Origin: an uncultured bacterium | GTDB taxonomy: Bacteria > Babelota > Babeliae > Babelales > Vermiphilaceae | Assembly: GCA_963702025.1 (NCBI GenBank) | Contig: OY969699.1 | Coordinates: 224,001 to 288,000, forward strand | Reading direction: 5' to 3' | DNA length: 64,000 nt | In this document: piece after piece, positions 52,744-63,903 of the stretch | Layout of the letters: each line of letters starts with the position of its first letter | How positions within the stretch are numbered: position 1 is the stretch's first letter | Position numbers and translations under genes: made by a program | The notes under the pieces: model-generated | Databases searched by the model: none | Told to the model about the DNA's origin: nothing | What the model saw: only the letters and a program-made list of their open reading frames with translations

Positions 52744-52826
52744 CCCTATTCCCCTGTGATTACCATTATTTCTAACTTTTTCTTGACAGACTAGTCAACA
52801 ATTTGTGTATTTTGTATCTACTTTAT

Positions 52827-52847
52827 TGGTTTTCTTGCGAAGTAGAA
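52827..52847 (+). repeat. 21-bp exact direct repeat, copy 2
   Basis: Identical to 37557-37577. Confidence 0.8.
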
Positions 52848-52855
52848 GTAAAAAA

Positions 52856-53281
52856 ATGACTCGAACAAAAATATTCTTTTTGATTTTGTTATTTTTTATT
52901 CAGCAATTTTTTATAGTTAGCGCAGATAATGAAAAACAAAAAATAGCTAAGCTTTTAAAGCACTTGCAAGCGAAACATTACGTTGAAAAAAATACCGCAT
53001 ACCATGCACTGGCAAAAGGATTCTTGGGGACCGCCGGGTTAATGACGGTAACAAAAGTAGCCCAAAATCTTTTGTGCCAATTCCCACCGTCGCCGCTTAA
53101 AAACTATGTGGCCAAGCACTGTCGCCGCCAGGTGGTTTGGGGAATTATTGGTTCATTTTTTTTGGGATTAAGTTATTATTCTTTAAGCAATTATTATAAG
53201 GGCTTAAAACATTTGTTAAGACCCGATAACCCAAACTCACTAGAAGTGGTCCAACAATGGTTACAAAAAGAAACAGACTAA
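52856..53281 (+). CDS. Hypothetical exported protein with two hydrophobic segments
   Basis: MTRTKIFFLILL...VSA signal peptide; two apolar stretches. Confidence 0.65.
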   Translation: MTRTKIFFLILLFFIQQFFIVSADNEKQKIAKLLKHLQAKHYVEKNTAYHALAKGFLGTAGLMTVTKVAQNLLCQFPPSPLKNYVAKHCRRQVVWGIIGSFFLGLSYYSLSNYYKGLKHLLRPDNPNSLEVVQQWLQKETD

Positions 53282-53658
53282 AATATGCGCTCTTGTTTTT
53301 ACTAATTAATGGTTCATTGGCATCAGCACAGATGCCGGATCCAGCATCTGAAAAAATAAACTATGAAATAGCGCTTGAACAGCACAAAAAATCCCGTGAA
53401 GAAAATTTAGCACAGGCAAAAACCGCATTTAGGCGCACCGCGATATATGCTGGGGCTGTGGCAACAGCCTGGATTGTGGGTGATTTCTGCGTTTTCCCAT
53501 ACACTCATAAAATGCGCAAAAAAATACGATTCTTAAAGGCATCGCCACATGAAATACTGTTTACAACGTCTCTTACCGGAGGAGCAGTTCTTACTATTTT
53601 GGCGCTCAAGAATGCTGCAAAAGGCGCTATAGAATTGGTCAAATATCATCTTGGTTAG
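53257..53658 (+). CDS. Hypothetical exported protein with two hydrophobic segments
   Basis: Signal peptide ending ASA; overlaps upstream gene. Confidence 0.65.
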   Translation: MVTKRNRLKYALLFLLINGSLASAQMPDPASEKINYEIALEQHKKSREENLAQAKTAFRRTAIYAGAVATAWIVGDFCVFPYTHKMRKKIRFLKASPHEILFTTSLTGGAVLTILALKNAAKGAIELVKYHLG

Positions 53659-53660
53659 CT

Positions 53661-54221
53661 ATGAAGTATGGACAAATATGCATAATCATTTTTGTCTATT
53701 TGCATCAAAGCGTACTCTCAGAAGAACATAAACAATCTCCTTCAAGATGGTACCACAAAGTTATGGGCGCAGGATGTATCAGCGCCGGCATTTTTTGTGG
53801 CACACTTTCAGTATATTTGGACCGTGAGATTGAAAGAAGAAAAACAAATCTGGGCATTCACGCTTTATATCCCCTTTCATATTTATTGATTGGAATCGGG
53901 GTAGAAAAAATAATTAACCAATCAGTTATGTTCGGCAATGAAAAAAAACCAATACATAAGCCAACAGTCTCGCTACAAGAGCTGAGCAAACAAGAATCAT
54001 GCAAAGCATTGCTTACAAAAATAACCGGTTACACTTTAGGCGCACTCTGTTTGCGACGATTATTCTCGCGCACAGAAAACAAGATTCCCCTTGTCTTGAG
54101 CTTAGCAACCGGTTCGGTGGCGCTCTTATACGCATCGCGCAAGCATACACTCAAGGCGGAAAAATATCAGCATGAGCACCAAGAAGAATTGATACAACAA
54201 TTGGCATGTGCATCGTATTGA
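53661..54221 (+). CDS. Hypothetical exported protein with four hydrophobic segments
   Basis: Signal peptide; two hydrophobic hairpins. Confidence 0.65.
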   Translation: MKYGQICIIIFVYLHQSVLSEEHKQSPSRWYHKVMGAGCISAGIFCGTLSVYLDREIERRKTNLGIHALYPLSYLLIGIGVEKIINQSVMFGNEKKPIHKPTVSLQELSKQESCKALLTKITGYTLGALCLRRLFSRTENKIPLVLSLATGSVALLYASRKHTLKAEKYQHEHQEELIQQLACASY

Positions 54222-54318
54222 TACGAGTGTGAGAAAATCGTAGAAAAGTTAAAAAATCTTCCCTACTCAATAAAGAGAACTGTATTATGATGGAGTACTA
54301 AAAAAAGGAGAAAGTACC

Positions 54319-55113
54319 ATGAAAATATTCGGCAAAATTCTCTTGTGTATCATTTTTAGCTCAGTAATAAATGTAAGTGCAGGCGAAAAAATATATAACC
54401 CGCTTAGTTTAAAAGAGACAGCCATACAATCAATTACCAAAGAAATAGTTGCCCATATAAACAAATTAGCAATCAAAGATCCGACAGCTTTTAATAGAGA
54501 AACAGAATCGATTGTTAAAAAGTTACTTTCATTGCCTGTAGACCTTCAAATGGAGATTTCGACAACAATAATAAAAGATATGCCGGGTAAAGAATGGAAT
54601 TTGCCTGGTAAAGTGAGCGCTCAAGCCTTATCTGCTACCAGACATCTTAGAGCAGATAATCTTCTCGATCTTCTACGAACTTTTATAGATAGAACAATGA
54701 GTGGTTACAACAAAACCCAATTAATAAAGTTTGTGGTTGAGCATAACACGCAACTATTTCATGCTTTTCCATTCTTAGTTTTAAGGGCAGACTTAGATAA
54801 GACAAAAGAAGAAAATTGGATACTCCAATTGCTTCCTTATGCAAACGATTTAGACAAATTTACGGCACTCTATTATTTAGCTAACAGTTTTGTACCCAAT
54901 AGCGATAGACAGAAGGGATTAGAATTTTTGTTAAAAAGCGGCGTTAATCCAAACATTCCTTATCGCGGCAGAACATTACTCTCATACCTTAAGGAAAAAC
55001 AAAAAGGATATGCCGTAGCGCCAGAGCCTGATGCGGCAAATATTTATAAAAAGTACTATGACAATTACGAAGCTGCAATTAAGCTCTTAGAAACGTATAA
55101 GGCAACCGAATAA
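54319..55113 (+). CDS. Secreted protein with BC-box/SOCS-like N-terminus and degenerate ankyrin repeat
   Basis: AAGGAG RBS; PLSLKETAIQSI...LLSLPVDLQ; TALYYLA...FLLKSGVNPN. Confidence 0.6.
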   Translation: MKIFGKILLCIIFSSVINVSAGEKIYNPLSLKETAIQSITKEIVAHINKLAIKDPTAFNRETESIVKKLLSLPVDLQMEISTTIIKDMPGKEWNLPGKVSAQALSATRHLRADNLLDLLRTFIDRTMSGYNKTQLIKFVVEHNTQLFHAFPFLVLRADLDKTKEENWILQLLPYANDLDKFTALYYLANSFVPNSDRQKGLEFLLKSGVNPNIPYRGRTLLSYLKEKQKGYAVAPEPDAANIYKKYYDNYEAAIKLLETYKATE

Positions 55114-56085: not shown

Positions 56086-57774
56086 ATGAAAAAAAAATAT
56101 TTTTTACATCTTCTACCGTTAGTTTTTGGCGCGCAGGCAATCGTTTTAGAAATTCCTGAGCAGCAAGATCTTCAACTTTTGAGGACCTATCAGCAAGGAC
56201 CGGGACTCATTAGTAAAATCAAGCGGACCTCTACAAAGCTCGGTTTGGAATATTTAACCAAACAAGTCACCAATCCTCTCGCAGACATCGTCGCGCTTAA
56301 GGCGCGCCAAGAATGGACCAAGCAGATTATGAGCGATCCGGCCCTGCAACAATCGTTGGAAGAGCACCTCAAAGTATTTGCTTGCGCTGAATCTTCCTTA
56401 AATATTGGCTGCGCCACCGACGATATATGCCAAAGCGTAATTAGTAATTTTTATTTTAAAAATAAATATTTGCGATGGCTCAACAACTATCCGGCCGGGC
56501 TTGAACTTGGTCAGCTGGCAACTATTGCAAATCTTTCAGCGCCGCTTATTGAGCATGCCATTATTCATTTTTTCATCAGCAAAGAGCTTCATGAACGGTT
56601 GGGCATTTGTGGGCATCCTCATGCCTGCAACGATCCTCATCATCATGCATCCTTTGGCGCACAACTGGCCTATAATAGCTATAACATTGCACACACCGGC
56701 ATCCATTTGATTGGTGCTAAAGGGGTTTATGATCACGTAAAGCAACAAGCAGATATCATCAAATCAATGCAATCGGAACTCATTAAATTACGCCATGCAA
56801 TAGAAAGTGCGCGCACCCTAGTGTCTCTTATTGATACGCTTGCCATTGACCATGTAAGATTTCCCGACACTCAAGAACCGAACATTTTTCATAGCGATAC
56901 CAATTCCGCCCAGCTCACGGAACTTTTAGATCTTCTTTCTCATGCCACCTTCGATGACCAACCATCATTTTTATCGCGGCCGGGAAATATTTTACGCGCG
57001 TACGCATTGGCCCAAATGGTGCATCATGAATTGCGCAGTGGATTGGCCATAATCGGTGCTATAGATTTTCAGGTTAGCTGTGCGCGCTTGATGCACGAAA
57101 GCAAGCAGGCTTTTGTTTTTGCCGATTTTATACAAGCGGCAGAACCACTCTTGCAGATTAAAGGATTTTGGAACCCGCTTGTTGCTGATATGCAACCAAT
57201 TGATAATGAGCTTATTTTGGGCGACTCGCACCCTCACATTGCACTAGTCACTGGGCCTAATAAAGCAGGAAAATCAACCGGGCTTGGCGCCTTGAGCACC
57301 GCCATTATTCTGGCGCAAAGTCTGGGCATAGTGCCGGCTCAATACTGCGCGATTACGCCATTTTCTCACATCAAAACCGGATTTAATATGACCAACCGGG
57401 TGAATCATGGCCAATCATTGTTTAGCACATCACTTGATTTTGCACGCGAAACAATTGCGTATGCCAAAAATAATCCCCACCATTTTGTTTTTATTGCCAC
57501 CGATGAATTATTTAATAGCACCGAATATTCTCAAGGATTAGAAATTGCCGCGGACTACATTCGTGAACTTGCTGAATGCAGCAATTGTATTGCGCTCATG
57601 GCAACCCATTTTGCCCCACTCACGGCCTTAGAAGAAGAAAATCCTGCGGTAATTAAAAATTATAAAGCGGAACTGACAACTACCAATGGCACACTCCGCT
57701 ATTGCATCGAACCGGGCATTAGTGAGCCGGGGAACACACTGCGGCTAGTGCAGCAGGATTTGTTGAAGAAGTAG
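56086..57774 (+). CDS. MutS-family protein (domain III-like plus ATPase domain V) with signal-like N-terminus
   Basis: TGPNKAGKST, SLF, DELFNSTE, MATHF; no mismatch-binding domain I. Confidence 0.85.
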   Translation: MKKKYFLHLLPLVFGAQAIVLEIPEQQDLQLLRTYQQGPGLISKIKRTSTKLGLEYLTKQVTNPLADIVALKARQEWTKQIMSDPALQQSLEEHLKVFACAESSLNIGCATDDICQSVISNFYFKNKYLRWLNNYPAGLELGQLATIANLSAPLIEHAIIHFFISKELHERLGICGHPHACNDPHHHASFGAQLAYNSYNIAHTGIHLIGAKGVYDHVKQQADIIKSMQSELIKLRHAIESARTLVSLIDTLAIDHVRFPDTQEPNIFHSDTNSAQLTELLDLLSHATFDDQPSFLSRPGNILRAYALAQMVHHELRSGLAIIGAIDFQVSCARLMHESKQAFVFADFIQAAEPLLQIKGFWNPLVADMQPIDNELILGDSHPHIALVTGPNKAGKSTGLGALSTAIILAQSLGIVPAQYCAITPFSHIKTGFNMTNRVNHGQSLFSTSLDFARETIAYAKNNPHHFVFIATDELFNSTEYSQGLEIAADYIRELAECSNCIALMATHFAPLTALEEENPAVIKNYKAELTTTNGTLRYCIEPGISEPGNTLRLVQQDLLKK

Positions 57775-57779
57775 GTATT

Positions 57780-58868
57780 TTAAACTGTTCTTCCGGCCAC
57801 TTTGCCCGTGACCGCAACATAACAAATGCTGACCAATACACATGCCAAATTTACCGAACTTGCCACGGTTTGTATCACCAAGCTATTTTCTTTGAGCCAT
57901 TCTTTAATATTGAACCATCTCTTCGATTGTAAAACATCAGAACTCAATACAAATTTTTGGTAAGCACTTTCCAAATTCTCTTCTCTCAAAAAACTTAACG
58001 GCAAGCCGGCCAAAAAAACCTCTTGATAAGCTGCTTTAATAAGAAGCTCAAGCTGGCGAGGCGAAAACCCATCAGTTTTCTTGGCAAGCTTCCTTAAATA
58101 AGCAAAGCTACACAGATCACTATGTTTTTCAAGATAATGCTCAATAATTCTTAAGCGATCATTCCAGCTACTTTTCTTAATTTCAACAATGTTACCCTCA
58201 AACCGATCCTTTAGTTGTGGCGGTAATTTGGTGACATCATTTGCCGTACCAATAACCAAAATATTGGGGTTATTCACATATTTATCCAGCAATAGCCAAA
58301 GTGCAGACCCGCAACCAATATCTTCGCCCATTATATTCGATTTGCGTTCAACAAAAACATTAAGCTCATCAAGAATAATCACACATTTCCTCTTGCTTTT
58401 CTCCGCAATCTCAAAAAAACGGGCTAAATTAGCAATTTCAGAATTTTTATATTCATTACCAAGAACCGGCATTAAGACAAAGTAGCAATCGCGCTTGAGT
58501 TTATATGCAACAATTGCTGCCAACGTTGATTTGCCACAGCCGGGAGGACCAACCAATAAAATTCTGTTGGGCAAAAGAAATTTGGTGCTCTTATCATATT
58601 TATTTTCATCGAACATTTTATTTATGAGATTAACATAATCTTTAAGGGCCTCGGGAGCATTGTCATAAATATATTCAGCGGTTGCCTCACTCTCCGGAAG
58701 AGATCCCTTTCTCATAGCAGCAAACATCGTCTCAAAAACATACTTCTCATGGTCTGTCGGCTCTTGTTTTTTTGGCTGATCCTGATTGGTCGGCGGATTC
58801 TCTTGATCAGCGAATGCGCCCATAGTAAGAAGCAATAAAAAAACGGCAAGAAGATTCTTTTGATTCAT
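57780..58868 (-). CDS. AAA+ ATPase with signal peptide and C-terminal TM
   Basis: LLAVFLLLLTMGAFA; GPPGCGKS, IILDE, GTAN, LKDRF; hydrophobic C-terminus. Confidence 0.88.
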   Translation of the reverse strand: MNQKNLLAVFLLLLTMGAFADQENPPTNQDQPKKQEPTDHEKYVFETMFAAMRKGSLPESEATAEYIYDNAPEALKDYVNLINKMFDENKYDKSTKFLLPNRILLVGPPGCGKSTLAAIVAYKLKRDCYFVLMPVLGNEYKNSEIANLARFFEIAEKSKRKCVIILDELNVFVERKSNIMGEDIGCGSALWLLLDKYVNNPNILVIGTANDVTKLPPQLKDRFEGNIVEIKKSSWNDRLRIIEHYLEKHSDLCSFAYLRKLAKKTDGFSPRQLELLIKAAYQEVFLAGLPLSFLREENLESAYQKFVLSSDVLQSKRWFNIKEWLKENSLVIQTVASSVNLACVLVSICYVAVTGKVAGRTV

Positions 58869-59012
58869 GGTGTCCCTAAAAAGCATCATTAGTAGATTCG
58901 TAGCTTTACAATTCTTGCTTAATTACTTCTGCCCCATCATTGAGAACATGATATTTTTAGGTAAGTATAACTTTTTTCAGCTAAAACTTCATCTATTACC
59001 TGCAGAAATTTT

Positions 59013-59420
59013 TCAATCTACAAATGTAACTGTTGGTTCATAAGAAGCAGCTAAATCCAAAATCTCATCATCAGTTATAATGCTAAAATGAATAACTTTA
59101 TATGAATCTGATATTCCATGAGATTGTTCAGACAACCATTTTAAATATTCAGAATTTTCAACTTTAAAAAAAGTCCAGTCACCATAAAATTTAGGGGCAT
59201 AGTTTTCATCAAGATAACCTATCGTTAACAATCTAAAAGTTTCATCAGTATTTCTAAAAGCATGGACAGAATGAGGAAATAATACCGATACTTTCTTTGA
59301 TTCTTTTTGCGCATCGACAAGCAGAATTTTAAATCCGTCAATGCTTACCGAGATCGATTCTATATAATATCTATCTGCCAGGTTATCCAAAGGCTTCCAT
59401 TGAGACCATTTTTCTTGCAT
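59013..59420 (-). CDS. Putative immunity protein
   Basis: 135 aa, aromatic-rich, no signal peptide, in a small-gene array downstream of a toxin-like gene. Confidence 0.55.
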   Translation of the reverse strand: MQEKWSQWKPLDNLADRYYIESISVSIDGFKILLVDAQKESKKVSVLFPHSVHAFRNTDETFRLLTIGYLDENYAPKFYGDWTFFKVENSEYLKWLSEQSHGISDSYKVIHFSIITDDEILDLAASYEPTVTFVD

Positions 59421-59466
59421 TTTTTTCCTATCGCGTACGTACTTTGATGCTTTTCACAATTGATTA

Positions 59467-59772
59467 TTAGCCTTCCCAACTAATATCCTGGGGATATTCA
59501 TTCTTCGTAAGAGTGCGTAATGATTTTAATATTACTCTATAGTTAATTAATGGTAATATTCGATCATCCTTTTTTTCAAAACAATCATCTTTTTGACTAT
59601 AAATACAGGCAGGATTCTCAAAATTTTTAGATTCAAAAAAATAGATTTTTTTCTGCAATGAATCAAGGCCAATATAATAAACTACATCCGTATCATCATT
59701 ATCTTTATATACTGAATAGTAATGTATATTATTTTTTTCAGAAGCTTTTCTTATGTCAATCACATATCTCAT
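59467..59772 (-). CDS. Putative immunity protein (paralog of 59778)
   Basis: IRK...NNIHYY.VYK...YY.GL...KKI.F...P.CIY...DCF...P..ISWE shared with neighbour. Confidence 0.6.
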   Translation of the reverse strand: MRYVIDIRKASEKNNIHYYSVYKDNDDTDVVYYIGLDSLQKKIYFFESKNFENPACIYSQKDDCFEKKDDRILPLINYRVILKSLRTLTKNEYPQDISWEG

Positions 59773-59777
59773 ATTGC

Positions 59778-60083
59778 TTAACTTTCCCAGCTTATACTCT
59801 CTGGAAACACATTATTTTTAATGGCATTTATACCTTTAATTATAGGACAAGCATTAATTTGAGGTTTTAAAGCTAAATCTTCTTTTACAAAACAATCTAA
59901 TTCAATATCATAAATGCAGTCTGGTGCGGTAAATTCCAAAGTCTTGTAAAACAAAATTTTTTTTGTTAACGGATTTAACCCCATATAATAACTGATTTCA
60001 TCAAGAGAATCATTTTTATATACTGCATAATAGTGAATATTATTTTCCATACCAATTTTTCTAATAAGTATTAGACGACCCAT
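59778..60083 (-). CDS. Putative cognate immunity protein
   Basis: Starts 10 bp after the stop of the toxin-like gene, with AAGGA RBS. Confidence 0.6.
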   Translation of the reverse strand: MGRLILIRKIGMENNIHYYAVYKNDSLDEISYYMGLNPLTKKILFYKTLEFTAPDCIYDIELDCFVKEDLALKPQINACPIIKGINAIKNNVFPESISWES

Positions 60084-60093
60084 ATGATTCCTT

Positions 60094-62277
60094 TCAATGG
60101 AAAAGCTCGCATCTCCAATTATGAATACCATCGACATAAGTATGCAATTCTCTGTTTGTTAGCTCTGGAAAATTCTCAGTTAATTTACTTTCAGCAAATT
60201 CATGCATAAACCATTCCAAATCACCTTTCCCAAAAGAATTATTAACCAGCCTTTCCCAACTTTCAGCAATATTTTTATCAGGAGCAAACCGATTTAATCC
60301 TTCATCTAAGTTATGCTTATTGTAAAATACGTGTTCCTTAACTCTTTCCACCCATTTTTTTTCGATTCTAAGGTTTTCAGATACTTTTTCAATATCAACT
60401 TTATCAGCTCGAACTTGTTCATAAAGTTGGCTGGCCTCTCTATCTAATGCTTGAATATCTGCATCAATATTAATATGATCCTTTACTTTTAAATCCGGCA
60501 CCTCTTTTTTTATTTCCTTAATTCTTTCCAGACAATCCATATAATCTTTATCCTGCGTTAGCTGACCCTCAAACTTTTTGGTTATCTCAGGCTCGGCTAA
60601 TTTTTCAGAATTCTTATTCTTTTCAGGATCTTCCGGATTTAAACCACCGGACCCTTGAGAACCGGTAATTTGATTATTATTTACCGAATTTTGTTGCTCC
60701 GAACTATCTGCTTTATTTGCAATATCAATGATTACTTGTTCAGGAGCATCTAAAAATTCTTTAATTTCCGCAGTAATATCTATTTTAACTTCTTCATTTA
60801 AAACTGCATTATTATTTTCTTCAAACTGGTTAGAGATGGTATCGTTAGAAGCACTATTCTCAACTGCCACCGGATCATTTTTATTAAGCTGAGCTTCTGC
60901 TGCTTGCGCAGCTTTCTCCAATGATTTATTTAAACTAGCATCATAGACATTCAGTAAGACTTTATATTTTGACTCAAGATCAATTTTTTCATCATAATCT
61001 AACTTCTTATATGAATCCTTAAATGCCTCAATAAAAGCAAGCGCTTCGGAGAATTTACCTTCTCTGCAAAGTATTTCTACTTTTTTTAAATTTAGAATAA
61101 ACGGACAATTGTTTATTTTTTCAGGCATATTTTGTTCTGGTTCTAAGCCATATAATAGCTTATTGGTTGCAGAATAAATCCATGAACCAGCGTCAAAAAA
61201 TCTATCTTGAAAATCGGCTTCACCAGTCTCATAATCATGCGCCAGATGATAGCCAGGCAATGCTCTTTTAGCATACAAATAATCTAAATAAGCTTTTTGA
61301 TTCCCTCCAAAAGTTGCCTTAATCGCTGGGGATAGAATATTAAAAAGTTCTTCCCGCTTATCGCTGCTATTGATTATATTAAAATCTTTATTAGCATAAA
61401 AAAAATTTTTGAACTCAGTTCGAATTTTACCTCGTAAATCCGGATCAGAAATACTTGCCCAAATTCCAGTAACATCTGGAGAATTTGATAGAGCTTTTAA
61501 TTGAATGGCCAATGCCTTGAGATTATTGCTTGGGGACATCAGTTGTTCAAAAATAGTCAACGCTACTTGTTGTGTCAAAGGTTCGCTCATTCCAGAGGCT
61601 CTTTTTTGTGCATAATCATCTGGCATTCTGCTAACAGCATCATAATCAACACTATCAGGATAAGCTGGATAATCGACCGCATGGCTATCATTGTTGTATA
61701 CATTTTCATATGAAAAATTAAAATCCCGATTCGTTGATTCGATACCACTCACTTCCACCGGTGAAGATAGGGGCTCGGATACCGGTGCAACTAAATCATT
61801 AATTTCAGCAGCAAGGATAGTTGTTTCATTCTGCGCCACAATTGATGAAGATACTCCATAGTCACTTGTTGCATTCATTGTTTCTGTGCTATGCGGCGAA
61901 TAACTTACTGAACTTGTTTCTATATCTGTTGCACTGATGTTTGAAGGCTTGTCGTGCAACATTTTTTCAACTATTTGATCTGTATAACTATTTGGATTCT
62001 CAAAAATGCGGCCAGTACTCAAATTGTTATGGTCATCCACCAGACGAATGCTTTGATAATCAACGTAACTTGTGTTCGTAGAATCATTTGTTGGATAATC
62101 CGGCGCATTATCCAAAATCGACTTAAATCCCAGCACAGCATAAGCTGCTTCAACTGCCTTCTCGACATACGGCTCGGCTTGCCAGAGCAAATTTGCCATT
62201 GGAAAAGAAGATAAACAAGAAAAAACTAATATTAAAGCCTGATATTTTAAAATAAATATATAACGATTAATAACCAT
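60094..62277 (-). CDS. Putative secreted polymorphic toxin
   Basis: Signal-like N-terminus; GSQGSGGLNPEDPEK linker; C-terminal domain RFAPDKNIAESWERL...HEFAES...H; followed by small immunity-like genes. Confidence 0.6.
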   Translation of the reverse strand: MVINRYIFILKYQALILVFSCLSSFPMANLLWQAEPYVEKAVEAAYAVLGFKSILDNAPDYPTNDSTNTSYVDYQSIRLVDDHNNLSTGRIFENPNSYTDQIVEKMLHDKPSNISATDIETSSVSYSPHSTETMNATSDYGVSSSIVAQNETTILAAEINDLVAPVSEPLSSPVEVSGIESTNRDFNFSYENVYNNDSHAVDYPAYPDSVDYDAVSRMPDDYAQKRASGMSEPLTQQVALTIFEQLMSPSNNLKALAIQLKALSNSPDVTGIWASISDPDLRGKIRTEFKNFFYANKDFNIINSSDKREELFNILSPAIKATFGGNQKAYLDYLYAKRALPGYHLAHDYETGEADFQDRFFDAGSWIYSATNKLLYGLEPEQNMPEKINNCPFILNLKKVEILCREGKFSEALAFIEAFKDSYKKLDYDEKIDLESKYKVLLNVYDASLNKSLEKAAQAAEAQLNKNDPVAVENSASNDTISNQFEENNNAVLNEEVKIDITAEIKEFLDAPEQVIIDIANKADSSEQQNSVNNNQITGSQGSGGLNPEDPEKNKNSEKLAEPEITKKFEGQLTQDKDYMDCLERIKEIKKEVPDLKVKDHINIDADIQALDREASQLYEQVRADKVDIEKVSENLRIEKKWVERVKEHVFYNKHNLDEGLNRFAPDKNIAESWERLVNNSFGKGDLEWFMHEFAESKLTENFPELTNRELHTYVDGIHNWRCELFH

Positions 62278-62295
62278 AATTTCACCCTCTTTGTT

Positions 62296-63903
62296 TTACA
62301 ACCATCCCAATAATGCCAATACCTTTGGCAGATATGGCAGCAAGGCTACCCCCAAATTAAGCAATTGAATATTTCGGCTTTCTTCAGAGCGTCCATCTGC
62401 TTGTACTGCTGTATCTTTTGACAACCCCATAGACTCACGCTGCAAACTCTGGCTTTCCAATGCTCTCAGATTTGAATTTTCAGCGCTTTCTTTACTTACC
62501 ACCAAACCTTCTTTGGCAACTGTTAAAGATTCGAGAGATCTGGTATCGGCTTTCGCGGCGATATCTTTTGATGACTGTAAAGACTCGCGCTGTAAAGCCT
62601 GACTCTCGAGTGCCCGCAAATTTGATTTTTCAGCACTTTCTTTGTTTACTAATAAACCCTCTTTTGCAACTTTTAAAGATTCAACTGATCTAGCATCGGC
62701 GTTCGCGGCAATTTCTTTTTGCACAGCAATGCTTTGAGCAGAAACATCCTTTGATAATTGAATGGACTCACGTTGCAAAACCTGGCTTTCAACCGCCCTT
62801 AAATCTACCTTCGCAGCGCTTTCTTTGCTTAGTCTGATCCCTTCTCTTGCCAATCTTAAAGATTCAAGGCCATTCTTGATAGAAAATATAGTATTAATAA
62901 TGCCAACGATATTTGCTATTGCACCAATTGTTTGAACGGTGTACGTAAAGACTTCTTTTTTATCCCATTCTGTTTTTTCTGTTAACTTTTCATCTTTTTT
63001 TAATTCGTTAAGAGCCTTCATAAAATCAGCGAGCGTTATTACTGGAGTATCAACATTTCTATCCCCTGCCCATCCAAGAGCAAGAACAACAAGCTTGTTA
63101 ATATCCCTATTAGAACGCCCCTTAACATGAGTAATTAATTTTTGAATTGTTTTTTGAGAATCAACTTGTTCTCCCTGTAAACAAGTTAAAATGATGCTAT
63201 TTATTGCATCGGGATTTTTCAAGTATGGAATTTCAAAAATTGACCCTTTTATTCTTGATTGTAATGGCACAGGCATTCCGGTTATTTCATTTGATGTACC
63301 GATAAACAATAATTTATTCTTTATCAGCACATCTAACATTTCCCATAAAGCTGACGGAGTCTCATCTTCAGCTTGATTTTCAGATTTTTTGCTTTTTTTT
63401 CTTGCAAGTTTATCAACTTCATCGACTACGAGATTTGCCTTAGCTCTTGCTGCAATATTTCCGATTCGGCGCAAGCTAGATTTGCCCGAATTTGCATATT
63501 CACTTTCCAACTGGCTACCTTTAACTACCATGAAAGGCATATCCATCTGCTGTAGGACAACATGGGCCAAAGTGCTTTTTCCACTCCCGGTAGGACCATA
63601 AAAAATCATACAATCGGGCAACGCTCGCGTACGTGCACGTCTTCGAGGATCAATTAATCGTTCAACACGCTCCTTAACATCTCCAGGTAAATTAGAAATT
63701 ACCTGATCACAGTATTCTTTAGGAATTTTTTCCAAATCTGTTGAATACGTGACTGCTGCCAAACTCTCTCTTTCTAAATCAAATAAACTAGTTTGTCCGG
63801 ATCTCGATGAACCCATTCCATTCGGCATGGGCCTTTCTGGTTTCTCCTGAGCGGCAATAGAAATAAAAAAACAAAATGAAATGAATGCACATAGCTTGTT
63901 CAT
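62296..63903 (-). CDS. AAA+ ATPase with signal peptide, TM segment and C-terminal tandem repeats
   Basis: MNKLCAFISFCFFISIAA; GPTGSGKS, LVVDE, GTSN, LQSRI. Confidence 0.88.
   Translation of the reverse strand: MNKLCAFISFCFFISIAAQEKPERPMPNGMGSSRSGQTSLFDLERESLAAVTYSTDLEKIPKEYCDQVISNLPGDVKERVERLIDPRRRARTRALPDCMIFYGPTGSGKSTLAHVVLQQMDMPFMVVKGSQLESEYANSGKSSLRRIGNIAARAKANLVVDEVDKLARKKSKKSENQAEDETPSALWEMLDVLIKNKLLFIGTSNEITGMPVPLQSRIKGSIFEIPYLKNPDAINSIILTCLQGEQVDSQKTIQKLITHVKGRSNRDINKLVVLALGWAGDRNVDTPVITLADFMKALNELKKDEKLTEKTEWDKKEVFTYTVQTIGAIANIVGIINTIFSIKNGLESLRLAREGIRLSKESAAKVDLRAVESQVLQRESIQLSKDVSAQSIAVQKEIAANADARSVESLKVAKEGLLVNKESAEKSNLRALESQALQRESLQSSKDIAAKADTRSLESLTVAKEGLVVSKESAENSNLRALESQSLQRESMGLSKDTAVQADGRSEESRNIQLLNLGVALLPYLPKVLALLGWL
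62380..62865 (-). repeat. Three ~150-bp coding tandem repeats (50-aa unit made of two 25-aa halves)
   Basis: Unit ESLKVAKEGLLVNKESAEKSNLRALESQALQRESLQSSKDIAAKADTRSL. Confidence 0.85.

Follow-up and report, generated by a model that had tools for sequence, protein, structure and literature searches.

A predicted polymorphic toxin-immunity locus and its signal-bearing AAA+ ATPases in a Babelota genome

Why should a gene for a large toxin-like protein lie between genes for two AAA+ ATPases that apparently carry export signals? This question is raised by six genes at positions 57780-63903 of a window of 64,000 nucleotides, the whole stretch of DNA analysed here, which corresponds to G000:C1:224001-288000. 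The source genome, G000, is a single contig of 1.60 Mb and about 95% complete. It belongs to the Babelota (TM6, Ca. Dependentiae/Babeliales), a phylum of protist parasites (PMC4378268, PMC6561590, PMC4776705; these and all further papers are cited from extracts). In a first-pass annotation, the genes had been described as a closely spaced minus-strand run, and a module for toxin delivery or membrane extraction coupled to a variable toxin had been proposed. All six genes were found at the positions given there, co-oriented on the minus strand in the order AAA, toxin, three small genes, AAA, with intergenic gaps of 18, 10, 5, 46, and 144 nt from 5' to 3'. The GC content is 0.39 for the ATPase genes, 0.35 for the toxin gene, and 0.27, 0.27, and 0.32 for P0004, P0005, and P0006, respectively. 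A promoter and terminator scan of the locus yielded no signal exceeding shuffled sequence. The features are listed in 5' to 3' order.

62296..63903, minus strand: P0001, 5' AAA+ ATPase with predicted signal, 535 aa (Pfam AAA, sequence features)
62878..62928, minus strand: hydrophobic helix of P0001 after the AAA domain, predicted membrane tether (sequence features)
62431..62719, minus strand: tandem repeat of 150 bp, 1.9 copies, 79% match, encoding the 50-aa repeat of P0001
60094..62277, minus strand: P0002, predicted polymorphic toxin, 727 aa (tip exchange, body comparison)
60097..60480, minus strand: toxin tip of P0002, residues 600-727, a widespread, unnamed, mostly helical domain
59778..60083, minus strand: P0004, likely cognate immunity gene 1, 101 aa, GC 0.27
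59467..59772, minus strand: P0005, second, diverged copy of the P0004 immunity family, 101 aa
59013..59420, minus strand: P0006, likely orphan immunity gene, 135 aa
57780..58868, minus strand: P0003, 3' AAA+ ATPase with predicted signal, 362 aa

The toxin, its tip and the immunity genes

Searches of Pfam, NCBIfam, and PHROGs provided no name for P0002, P0004, P0005, or P0006. P0002 consists of a signal-like N-terminus, a lineage-specific body at about residues 160-430, a GSGG..PEDP linker near residue 540, and a tip spanning residues 600-727; 47 of 53 toxins from the loci examined have a signal-like N-terminus according to a hydrophobicity filter. The last 128 residues match the C-termini of phage MuF, PT-TG, haemagglutinin-repeat, and Clostridium proteins, and each of these four matching C-termini is followed by a small gene. 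A profile of the tip detected 1,587 clusters at 50% identity, and nearly every one of the 150 clusters listed is matched at its C-terminus. The tip also ends MuF, LXG, RHS, HINT, PT-TG, and CdiA-like proteins. N-terminal domains were recognised in ten of 50 long tip carriers scanned, namely MuF/minor capsid (four), PT-HINT (two), RHS, LXG, Phage_GPD, and LysM (one each). Exchange of a tip among unrelated carriers, as observed here, is a hallmark of polymorphic toxins. Within the phylum, the tip is present in 25 of 261 genomes. Since the body of P0002 precedes other tips at loci L029 and L077, the polymorphism runs both ways.

Another domain, a shared trunk with the motif G..Q..LH.E, was found in 56 of 104 Babelota toxins (L132, L078, L025, and others) and was not detected in P0002. 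It is a candidate for a lineage-specific trafficking domain.

A model of the tip built from 79 sequences has a pLDDT (predicted local distance difference test) of 93.7 and exhibits seven helices and a short hairpin; it supersedes an earlier model from three sequences (pLDDT 45.5). Fold searches returned no clear match (best E 1.3 with Foldseek against PDB, best Z 4.4 with VIA-align, best E 0.5 against BFVD), which does not make the fold new. The model includes a helix pair at residues 628-651, of interest in view of the Tox-HTH tip (HTH fold with RxxY, R, and S/T; Zhang et al. 2012), again without a clear fold match. Conserved residues of the tip are H649, H655, H692, E693, E696, and H712, and this set of histidines and glutamates suggests a metal-dependent catalytic site, as judged from the alignment. 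The metallopeptidase label Tox-MPTase1-5 was rejected, because the motif reads HExxE, not HExxH, in 99-100% of the 79 aligned sequences.

P0004 and P0005 are paralogous (44% identical, E 7e-26). A gene of this family follows the tip in all four earlier loci (L022, L081, L083, L088) and in 12 of 20 tip-bearing open reading frames (ORFs) at further loci; among the other eight, five are succeeded by a gene for 93-101 aa that did not score as a member of this family, one by a gene for 499 aa, one by a gene on the opposite strand, and one by the contig end. In an initial comparison of profiles, no relationship was detected between the immunity genes of Babelota and those of Firmicutes/Rhizobium (probability 7.7%). 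Only the deeper profile of the P0004 family matched the gene behind the MuF tip of phage CDMH1 (gp5, E 3.4e-8), and it did not match the post-tip genes of Priestia or C. felsineum. P0004 and P0005 are therefore likely to represent the cognate immunity family of the P0002 tip. The family of P0006 follows another tip (L031, L045, L052, L055), and this tip was not found in G000, at 95% completeness, by hidden Markov model (HMM) or tblastn searches. P0006 is therefore likely to be an orphan immunity gene, and immunity against a toxin seemingly missing from the genome would point to attack by other bacteria. The locus thus has the testable properties of polymorphic toxin systems: an exchanged tip, a likely cognate immunity gene behind it, and a likely orphan immunity gene. 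Very probably, it is a system of this kind, and P0002 is predicted to be an antibacterial toxin exported via Sec.

Long arrays of paralogous small genes were noticed after toxins or orphan tips at L148:4306-6596, L055:15724-18758, and L184:5344-6755. They suggest a piling up of immunity variants.

Association of the ATPase family with toxin modules

The flanking ATPases led to the question of whether their position is peculiar to this locus. Regions around ATPase matches in relatives were fetched and ORFs were called; the loci were picked by score and include many kin. A tree of 128 AAA cores splits the family into a basal and a derived group, and both ATPases of the window belong to the derived clade, which is expanded in this lineage and signal-bearing. 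Scans of wider collections, based on P0003 or on its clade and with saturated patterns, retrieved nothing but remote AAA proteins of a generic kind, whose loci were used as a control only. In a tree including outside sequences, deep support is weak and 14 of 70 outside sequences fall inside the derived clade; for these reasons, neither an origin from FtsH nor strict monophyly of the clade is claimed.

The survey revealed a clear association. A toxin-immunity module adjoins 70 of 85 evaluable ATPases of the derived clade and none of 22 basal ones, after exclusion of unlinked ATPases (14 derived, two basal) situated no more than 3 kb from the end of their locus. The toxins behind these counts were selected by eye among candidates that a rule had picked out near ATPases. 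Under a strict mechanical rule, 44 of 123 ATPases are linked, none of them basal. For comparison, seven of 1,634 other genes in G000 are linked (about 0.4%), and a similar rule linked none of 90 loci that encode distant AAA proteins on metagenome and viral contigs. The linked ATPase genes are mostly located 5' of the module, 44 co-oriented and eight divergent, with 18 on the 3' side. The tips near ATPases fall into 19 clusters among 65 proteins and include EndoU, Ntox21, Ntox35, and colicin-E3-like domains; CdiI_ImmP and DUF2247 genes follow. The recurring link between ATPase and variable toxin that the first-pass annotation had expected from a neighbourhood survey does exist.

G000 itself contains five ATPases of the family at four loci, three of which include a toxin-immunity module. 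A genome-wide module rule produced five matches, three signal-bearing modules and two housekeeping false positives. All three signal-bearing modules adjoin a family ATPase, one of which is split.

The typical layout differs from that of the window. Besides the P0002 locus, only seven of 51 linked modules are bracketed, while 35 have a 5' ATPase only and nine a 3' ATPase only. Bracketing by two ATPases, as described in the first-pass annotation, is thus a minority arrangement and was discarded as the defining layout. The closest counterpart is L022, in which a 5' ATPase, a toxin with the same tip, an immunity gene, and a 3' ATPase occur in the same order.

The association was also examined in reverse, starting from 62 toxins picked by their tips, 43 full-length EndoU toxins and 19 with the P0002 tip; five EndoU toxins without a 5' gene and two loci without a full-length toxin ORF were excluded. 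Among the 5' neighbours, the ATPase cluster accounts for 21 genes and the next largest cluster for two. Adjacency to an ATPase, seen for 12 of the 43 and 12 of the 19 toxins, is far above the background of 0.4%.

Comparisons of partners indicated that the relatedness of the ATPases follows the toxin body. In 39 co-oriented pairs, AAA distance is correlated with similarity of the toxin body (rho -0.33, permutation p 0.0005), whereas no correlation was seen for the tip (rho -0.06, p 0.16). For 28 of the 39 pairs, the toxin belonging to the nearest ATPase is among the top three body matches. Nineteen concordant locus pairs were compared; 12 have no flanking gene in common and four have a single one, so that the ATPase-toxin pair appears to move as a unit.

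A number of variants were detected on the way. At G000:C1:887359-893749 (L041), the ATPase is split into ORFs of 386 and 89 aa, for which either a frameshift or faulty assembly may be responsible. Behind it lie the genes for a toxin of 1,464 aa and for a CdiI_ImmP immunity protein (E 1e-32). At G000:C1:1254266-1257853 (L042), a 613-aa PT-HINT toxin and a low-GC ORF are followed, on the 3' side, by an ATPase of the family with 356 aa. A signal-bearing family of 150-180 aa without a Pfam match is encoded one to four genes from one ATPase subclade in nine of ten locus matches, one of the ten being a duplicate locus (G000:C1:958343-961309 (L043), L021, L037, L041, L044, L048). It is possibly a third component of the module. 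Other members are an ankyrin-AAA fusion (L071:3863-6547) and a tandem AAA-AAA protein (L102:7605-9674), and degenerate ATPase copies without Walker A are located directly after immunity genes in L167, L169, L171, and L174. The basal signal-bearing AAA proteins (L101, L106, L111, L113, L115, L123) have no protease domain and FtsH-like pore loops. Their genes are often near ruvA or gatB, never beside toxins, and they possibly specify a housekeeping exported ATPase.

Features of the ATPases and possible modes of action

P0001 and P0003 match Pfam AAA with E values of 3.5e-21 and 4.4e-21, respectively, and share only 33% identity across 167 aa. In P0001, a predicted Sec signal (residues 1-17) is followed by the AAA domain (about 99-221), hydrophobic helices at 326-342 and, C-terminally, at 517-533, and coiled-coil-like 50-aa repeats beyond the AAA domain. 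P0003 has a predicted Sec signal ending in AFA, an AAA domain at about 103-226, and a C-terminal hydrophobic helix at 339-355. The motifs reported in the first-pass annotation were all found in both proteins: Walker A and B, the sensor-1 asparagine, and the arginine finger are intact, as in the classic clade of FtsH, p97, and Vps4, and the SEYANS/NEYKNS loop is present. The hydrophobic segment noted there after the AAA domain corresponds to helix 326-342 in P0001 and to helix 339-355 in P0003. The NCBIfam models IteA, CdvC, PAN, and FtsH gave best scores of 40 and 53 bits, compared to curated cut-offs of at least 500. No peptidase domain was detected with Pfam in either ATPase; a permuted domain could escape Pfam, and P0003 is too short to hold a permuted C48 peptidase domain.

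Across the derived clade, the catalytic residues are well conserved, the Walker A lysine in 103 of 104 members, the Walker B glutamate in 95, and the sensor-1 asparagine and the arginine finger in 98 each. A lid arginine is present in 89 of 104 derived and in none of 23 basal members; the derived clade swaps one arginine of the SRH (second region of homology) for it. The hydrophobic helix after the AAA domain is likewise confined to the derived clade (63 of 101 members, none of 24 basal ones). Threading AAA enzymes typically have a pore loop of the form aromatic-hydrophobic-glycine. This form is not kept in P0001 (YAN) and P0003 (YKN). In the clade, the aromatic residue is tyrosine in 73 and phenylalanine in 19 of 104 members, and the glycine is retained in 22 of 104 derived versus 23 of 23 basal members.

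Signal peptide calls are based on hydrophobicity, charge, and (-3,-1) sites. An N-terminal hydrophobic core is present in 115 of 123 family ATPases; among these, the n-region is positive in 92% and the next 25 residues are non-positive in 73%. A (-3,-1) small-residue motif was detected in 106 of the 115, compared to a mean of 89 and a maximum of 100 after shuffling. The uncharged N-terminal runs are short (median 17 residues, flanks included), and a lipobox is present in one of 123 ATPases. These sequence statistics support the N-terminal signals that the first-pass annotation had proposed, and charge pattern, short cores, and enriched (-3,-1) sites favour Sec signals that are cleaved. A signal alone is not unusual in the lineage: of the 1,231 ORFs in G000 that encode 150 aa or more, 797 pass the same crude filter for N-terminal hydrophobicity. 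In Chromulinavorax, signals are predicted for 44% of the coding sequences (PMC6561590). If the signal is cleaved, the AAA domain would sit outside the cytoplasm, tethered by the helix after it. The Msp1/Bcs1-like logic favoured in the first-pass annotation needs an uncleaved N-terminal anchor and is not supported in the form given there, since the N-terminus looks cleavable and the extra helix lies behind the AAA domain. The usual objection to an exported AAA motor is that the periplasm holds no ATP. It is weaker here, because Babelota grow in the cytoplasm or vacuoles of their hosts, take up ATP from them, and possess only a degenerate outer membrane (PMC4776705). Matches to ATP/ADP translocases at three loci of G000 are consistent with life in host ATP.

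The pattern may be explained if the ATPases are threading motors that are exported, tethered to a membrane, and helpful to some of the toxins outside the producer cytoplasm, likely using host ATP. This is our tentative preference, to which we give somewhat less than an even chance. More doubtful is the specific version in which an exported, C-terminally tethered AAA translocase running on host ATP pushes the producer's own toxins into co-infecting bacteria. Toxin and ATPase would leave the producer via the general Sec route of the lineage, the signal would be cleaved, and the helix after the AAA domain would tether the ring to a membrane, which may be the producer envelope, the vacuole, or the target. 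Sitting in an ATP-containing host compartment, the motor would grip the toxin body and then unfold, release, or thread the toxin across a membrane, so that the tip could enter the cytoplasm of a rival bacterium within the same protist host.

Several observations weigh against such a motor. Only 12 of the 43 full-length EndoU toxins, and 12 of the 19 other toxins bearing the P0002 tip, have an adjacent ATPase. An obligatory cis part in the delivery module was rejected on the EndoU count, and since most sampled EndoU toxins have no ATPase adjacent, the motor would have to be an accessory or act in trans. Of the delivery module of the first-pass annotation, the recurring link and the variable toxins thus remain, while the ATPase is not obligatory. 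Conversely, 15 of the 85 derived ATPases have no adjoining module. The derived clade arose once, so that the contrast to the basal group amounts to one evolutionary event, and the loci are score-picked with many kin and an eye-curated toxin list. The nearest relative of P0001 (L021) adjoins a toxin whose body lacks detectable similarity to P0002, and the trunk domain (56 of 104 toxins) occurs both in ATPase-linked and in unlinked toxins. The pore loop has lost the form typical of threading enzymes, ankyrin repeats are fused to some ATPases of the family (L071), and in Babela a host effector role has been suggested for AAA-Ulp1 proteins with a signal (PMC4378268).

Part of this evidence would agree with ATPases that are host-directed effectors, p97/Vps4-like remodellers that would be secreted into the protist, riding the same mobile conflict cassettes and not acting on toxins. 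The scarcity of ATPases next to EndoU toxins, the unlinked derived members, the ankyrin-AAA fusion together with the Babela precedent, and the abundance of signals in the lineage speak for this view, as do the best PDB sequence matches, which are VAT/p97/Cdc48 with scores inflated by tandem domains. We nevertheless consider it somewhat less likely than the motor, because the position 5' of toxins is not taken repeatedly by any other family (21 versus at most two) despite hundreds of other signal-bearing genes, and because the relatedness of the ATPases follows the toxin body even where the flanking genes are unrelated. Both patterns could still result from hitch-hiking within one cassette.

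That relatedness, which tracks the producer's own toxin body, and the most frequent arrangement, a co-oriented ATPase gene immediately 5' of the toxin (44 of 70), also make it improbable that the ATPases are defensive, envelope-tethered dislocases extracting or unfolding incoming toxins as part of immunity arrays. Such a role is most plausible for 3' copies such as P0003, for which it may hold even if 5' copies serve delivery: 18 of the 70 linked ATPases are located 3' of immunity genes, some have an immunity-like or orphan gene as neighbour but no complete toxin (L028, L032, L084, L096), and of four other P0003 orthologues, two follow toxin cassettes, one lies by an orphan immunity-like gene, and one is on a truncated contig. 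Least probable of all appears an uncleaved anchor, by which the AAA domain would face the producer cytoplasm, as in FtsH or Msp1, and chaperone the toxin or strip the immunity protein before export. No extracellular ATP would be required, and the FtsH-like pore loops of basal members as well as nesting near FtsH-length proteins in the weakly supported tree would fit, but the charge pattern, the short uncharged runs, and the enriched (-3,-1) sites favour cleavage.

Relation to known systems and genomic setting

In a literature search of mostly open-access papers, with toxin-survey supplements outside its scope, no description was found of polymorphic toxins in Babelota, of the ATPase-toxin link, or of the tip. 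The available text of the survey by Zhang et al. (2012, PMC3482391) does not mention 'TM6'. The polymorphic toxins with export by Sec and the type II secretion system described therein (PMC3482391) likewise combine a large signal-bearing protein (the signal being a predicted one in P0002) and an exchangeable tip with cognate as well as orphan immunity genes and with tip cassettes, and the Babelota relatives carry EndoU, Ntox21, Ntox35, colicin-E3-like, PT-HINT, CdiI_ImmP, and DUF2247 domains. Unlike in those systems, the Babelota bodies are lineage-specific, have no Pfam trafficking domains, and are accompanied by an adjacent signal-bearing AAA protein.

The ClpV ATPase of the type VI secretion system (T6SS) and the ATPases of Photorhabdus virulence cassettes (PVC) are cytoplasmic. 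They are likewise classic-type AAA+ proteins (CDC48-like in PVC) encoded with toxin genes, and they recycle phage-tail machines (PMC3482391). The Babelota ATPases differ by a predicted signal and a helix after the AAA domain and by tracking individual toxin bodies. Membership in T6SS or PVC was rejected, as the Phage_GPD/VgrG-type profile PF05954 has no match in G000 (matches in two of 14 controls). The TpsB/CdiB profile PF03865 gave zero matches in G000 and zero in the controls as well. One Omp85 protein and two secretins are encoded in G000.

As nearest working analogues of the preferred threading motor, FtsH-dependent import of nuclease bacteriocins and Plasmodium HSP101/PTEX (Plasmodium translocon of exported proteins) are proposed. 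FtsH is required for import of pyocin G across the inner membrane (PMC9040868). There, too, an AAA+ motor serves a toxin in crossing a bacterial inner membrane, but it is the victim's own protease-fused FtsH, while the Babelota motor is toxin-linked, has no M41 domain, and is predicted to be exported. HSP101 is a Clp-type AAA+ unfoldase with a separate pore and general cargo, which threads proteins across the vacuole membrane outside the parasite cytoplasm. Common to both would be the motor of an intracellular parasite acting outside its own cytoplasm; unlike in HSP101/PTEX, no pore partner was found at the Babelota loci and the proposed cargo consists of interbacterial toxins.

Within the phylum, the AAA-Ulp1 (C48) family of Babela massiliensis has a predicted signal peptide, and the amoeba cytoplasm was suggested as its place of action (Pagnier et al. 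2015, PMC4378268). P0001 and P0003 share the predicted signal and the AAA domain, without a detected peptidase domain, and a toxin-immunity link is not mentioned in the available part of that paper (PMC4378268). The Tox3/Imm3 pair of W10XG/PT-TG toxins was validated in E. coli (PMC13483458). By eye only, Imm3 resembles P0006 and Tox3 ends like the P0006-associated tip (PTxEI..KxRY). The P0002 tip is distinct from Tox3, its Priestia carrier being listed with PF14449 alone in the supplement (PMC13483458).

Three implications hold even if the motor model fails. First, a phylum of obligate intracellular bacteria with small genomes carries a widespread arsenal of polymorphic toxins and immunity proteins, EndoU matches being present in 57 of 151 genomes; here the orphan immunity genes suggest conflict between bacteria that infect the same protist. 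Second, the tip defines a large unnamed family for which a confident model and a candidate immunity partner are at hand. Third, an AAA clade that is catalytically intact by its motifs and has predicted export signals challenges the rule that such motors are bound to the cytoplasm. If threading of toxins proves true, it would address how Sec-exported nuclease toxins cross membranes without type V, VI, or VII secretion systems, and it would represent a principle of toxin delivery open only to bacteria inside ATP-rich cells.

Two neighbouring regions of the window deserve mention. At 56086-57774 on the plus strand, convergent with P0003, a 562-aa protein with MutS III/V domains and a signal-like N-terminus is encoded, another apparently exported P-loop protein. 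Four genes at 52805-55113 (plus strand), with signal-like starts and without a Pfam match, are located between an ftsQ-like/ftsA/ftsZ cluster and an rRNA methyltransferase gene.

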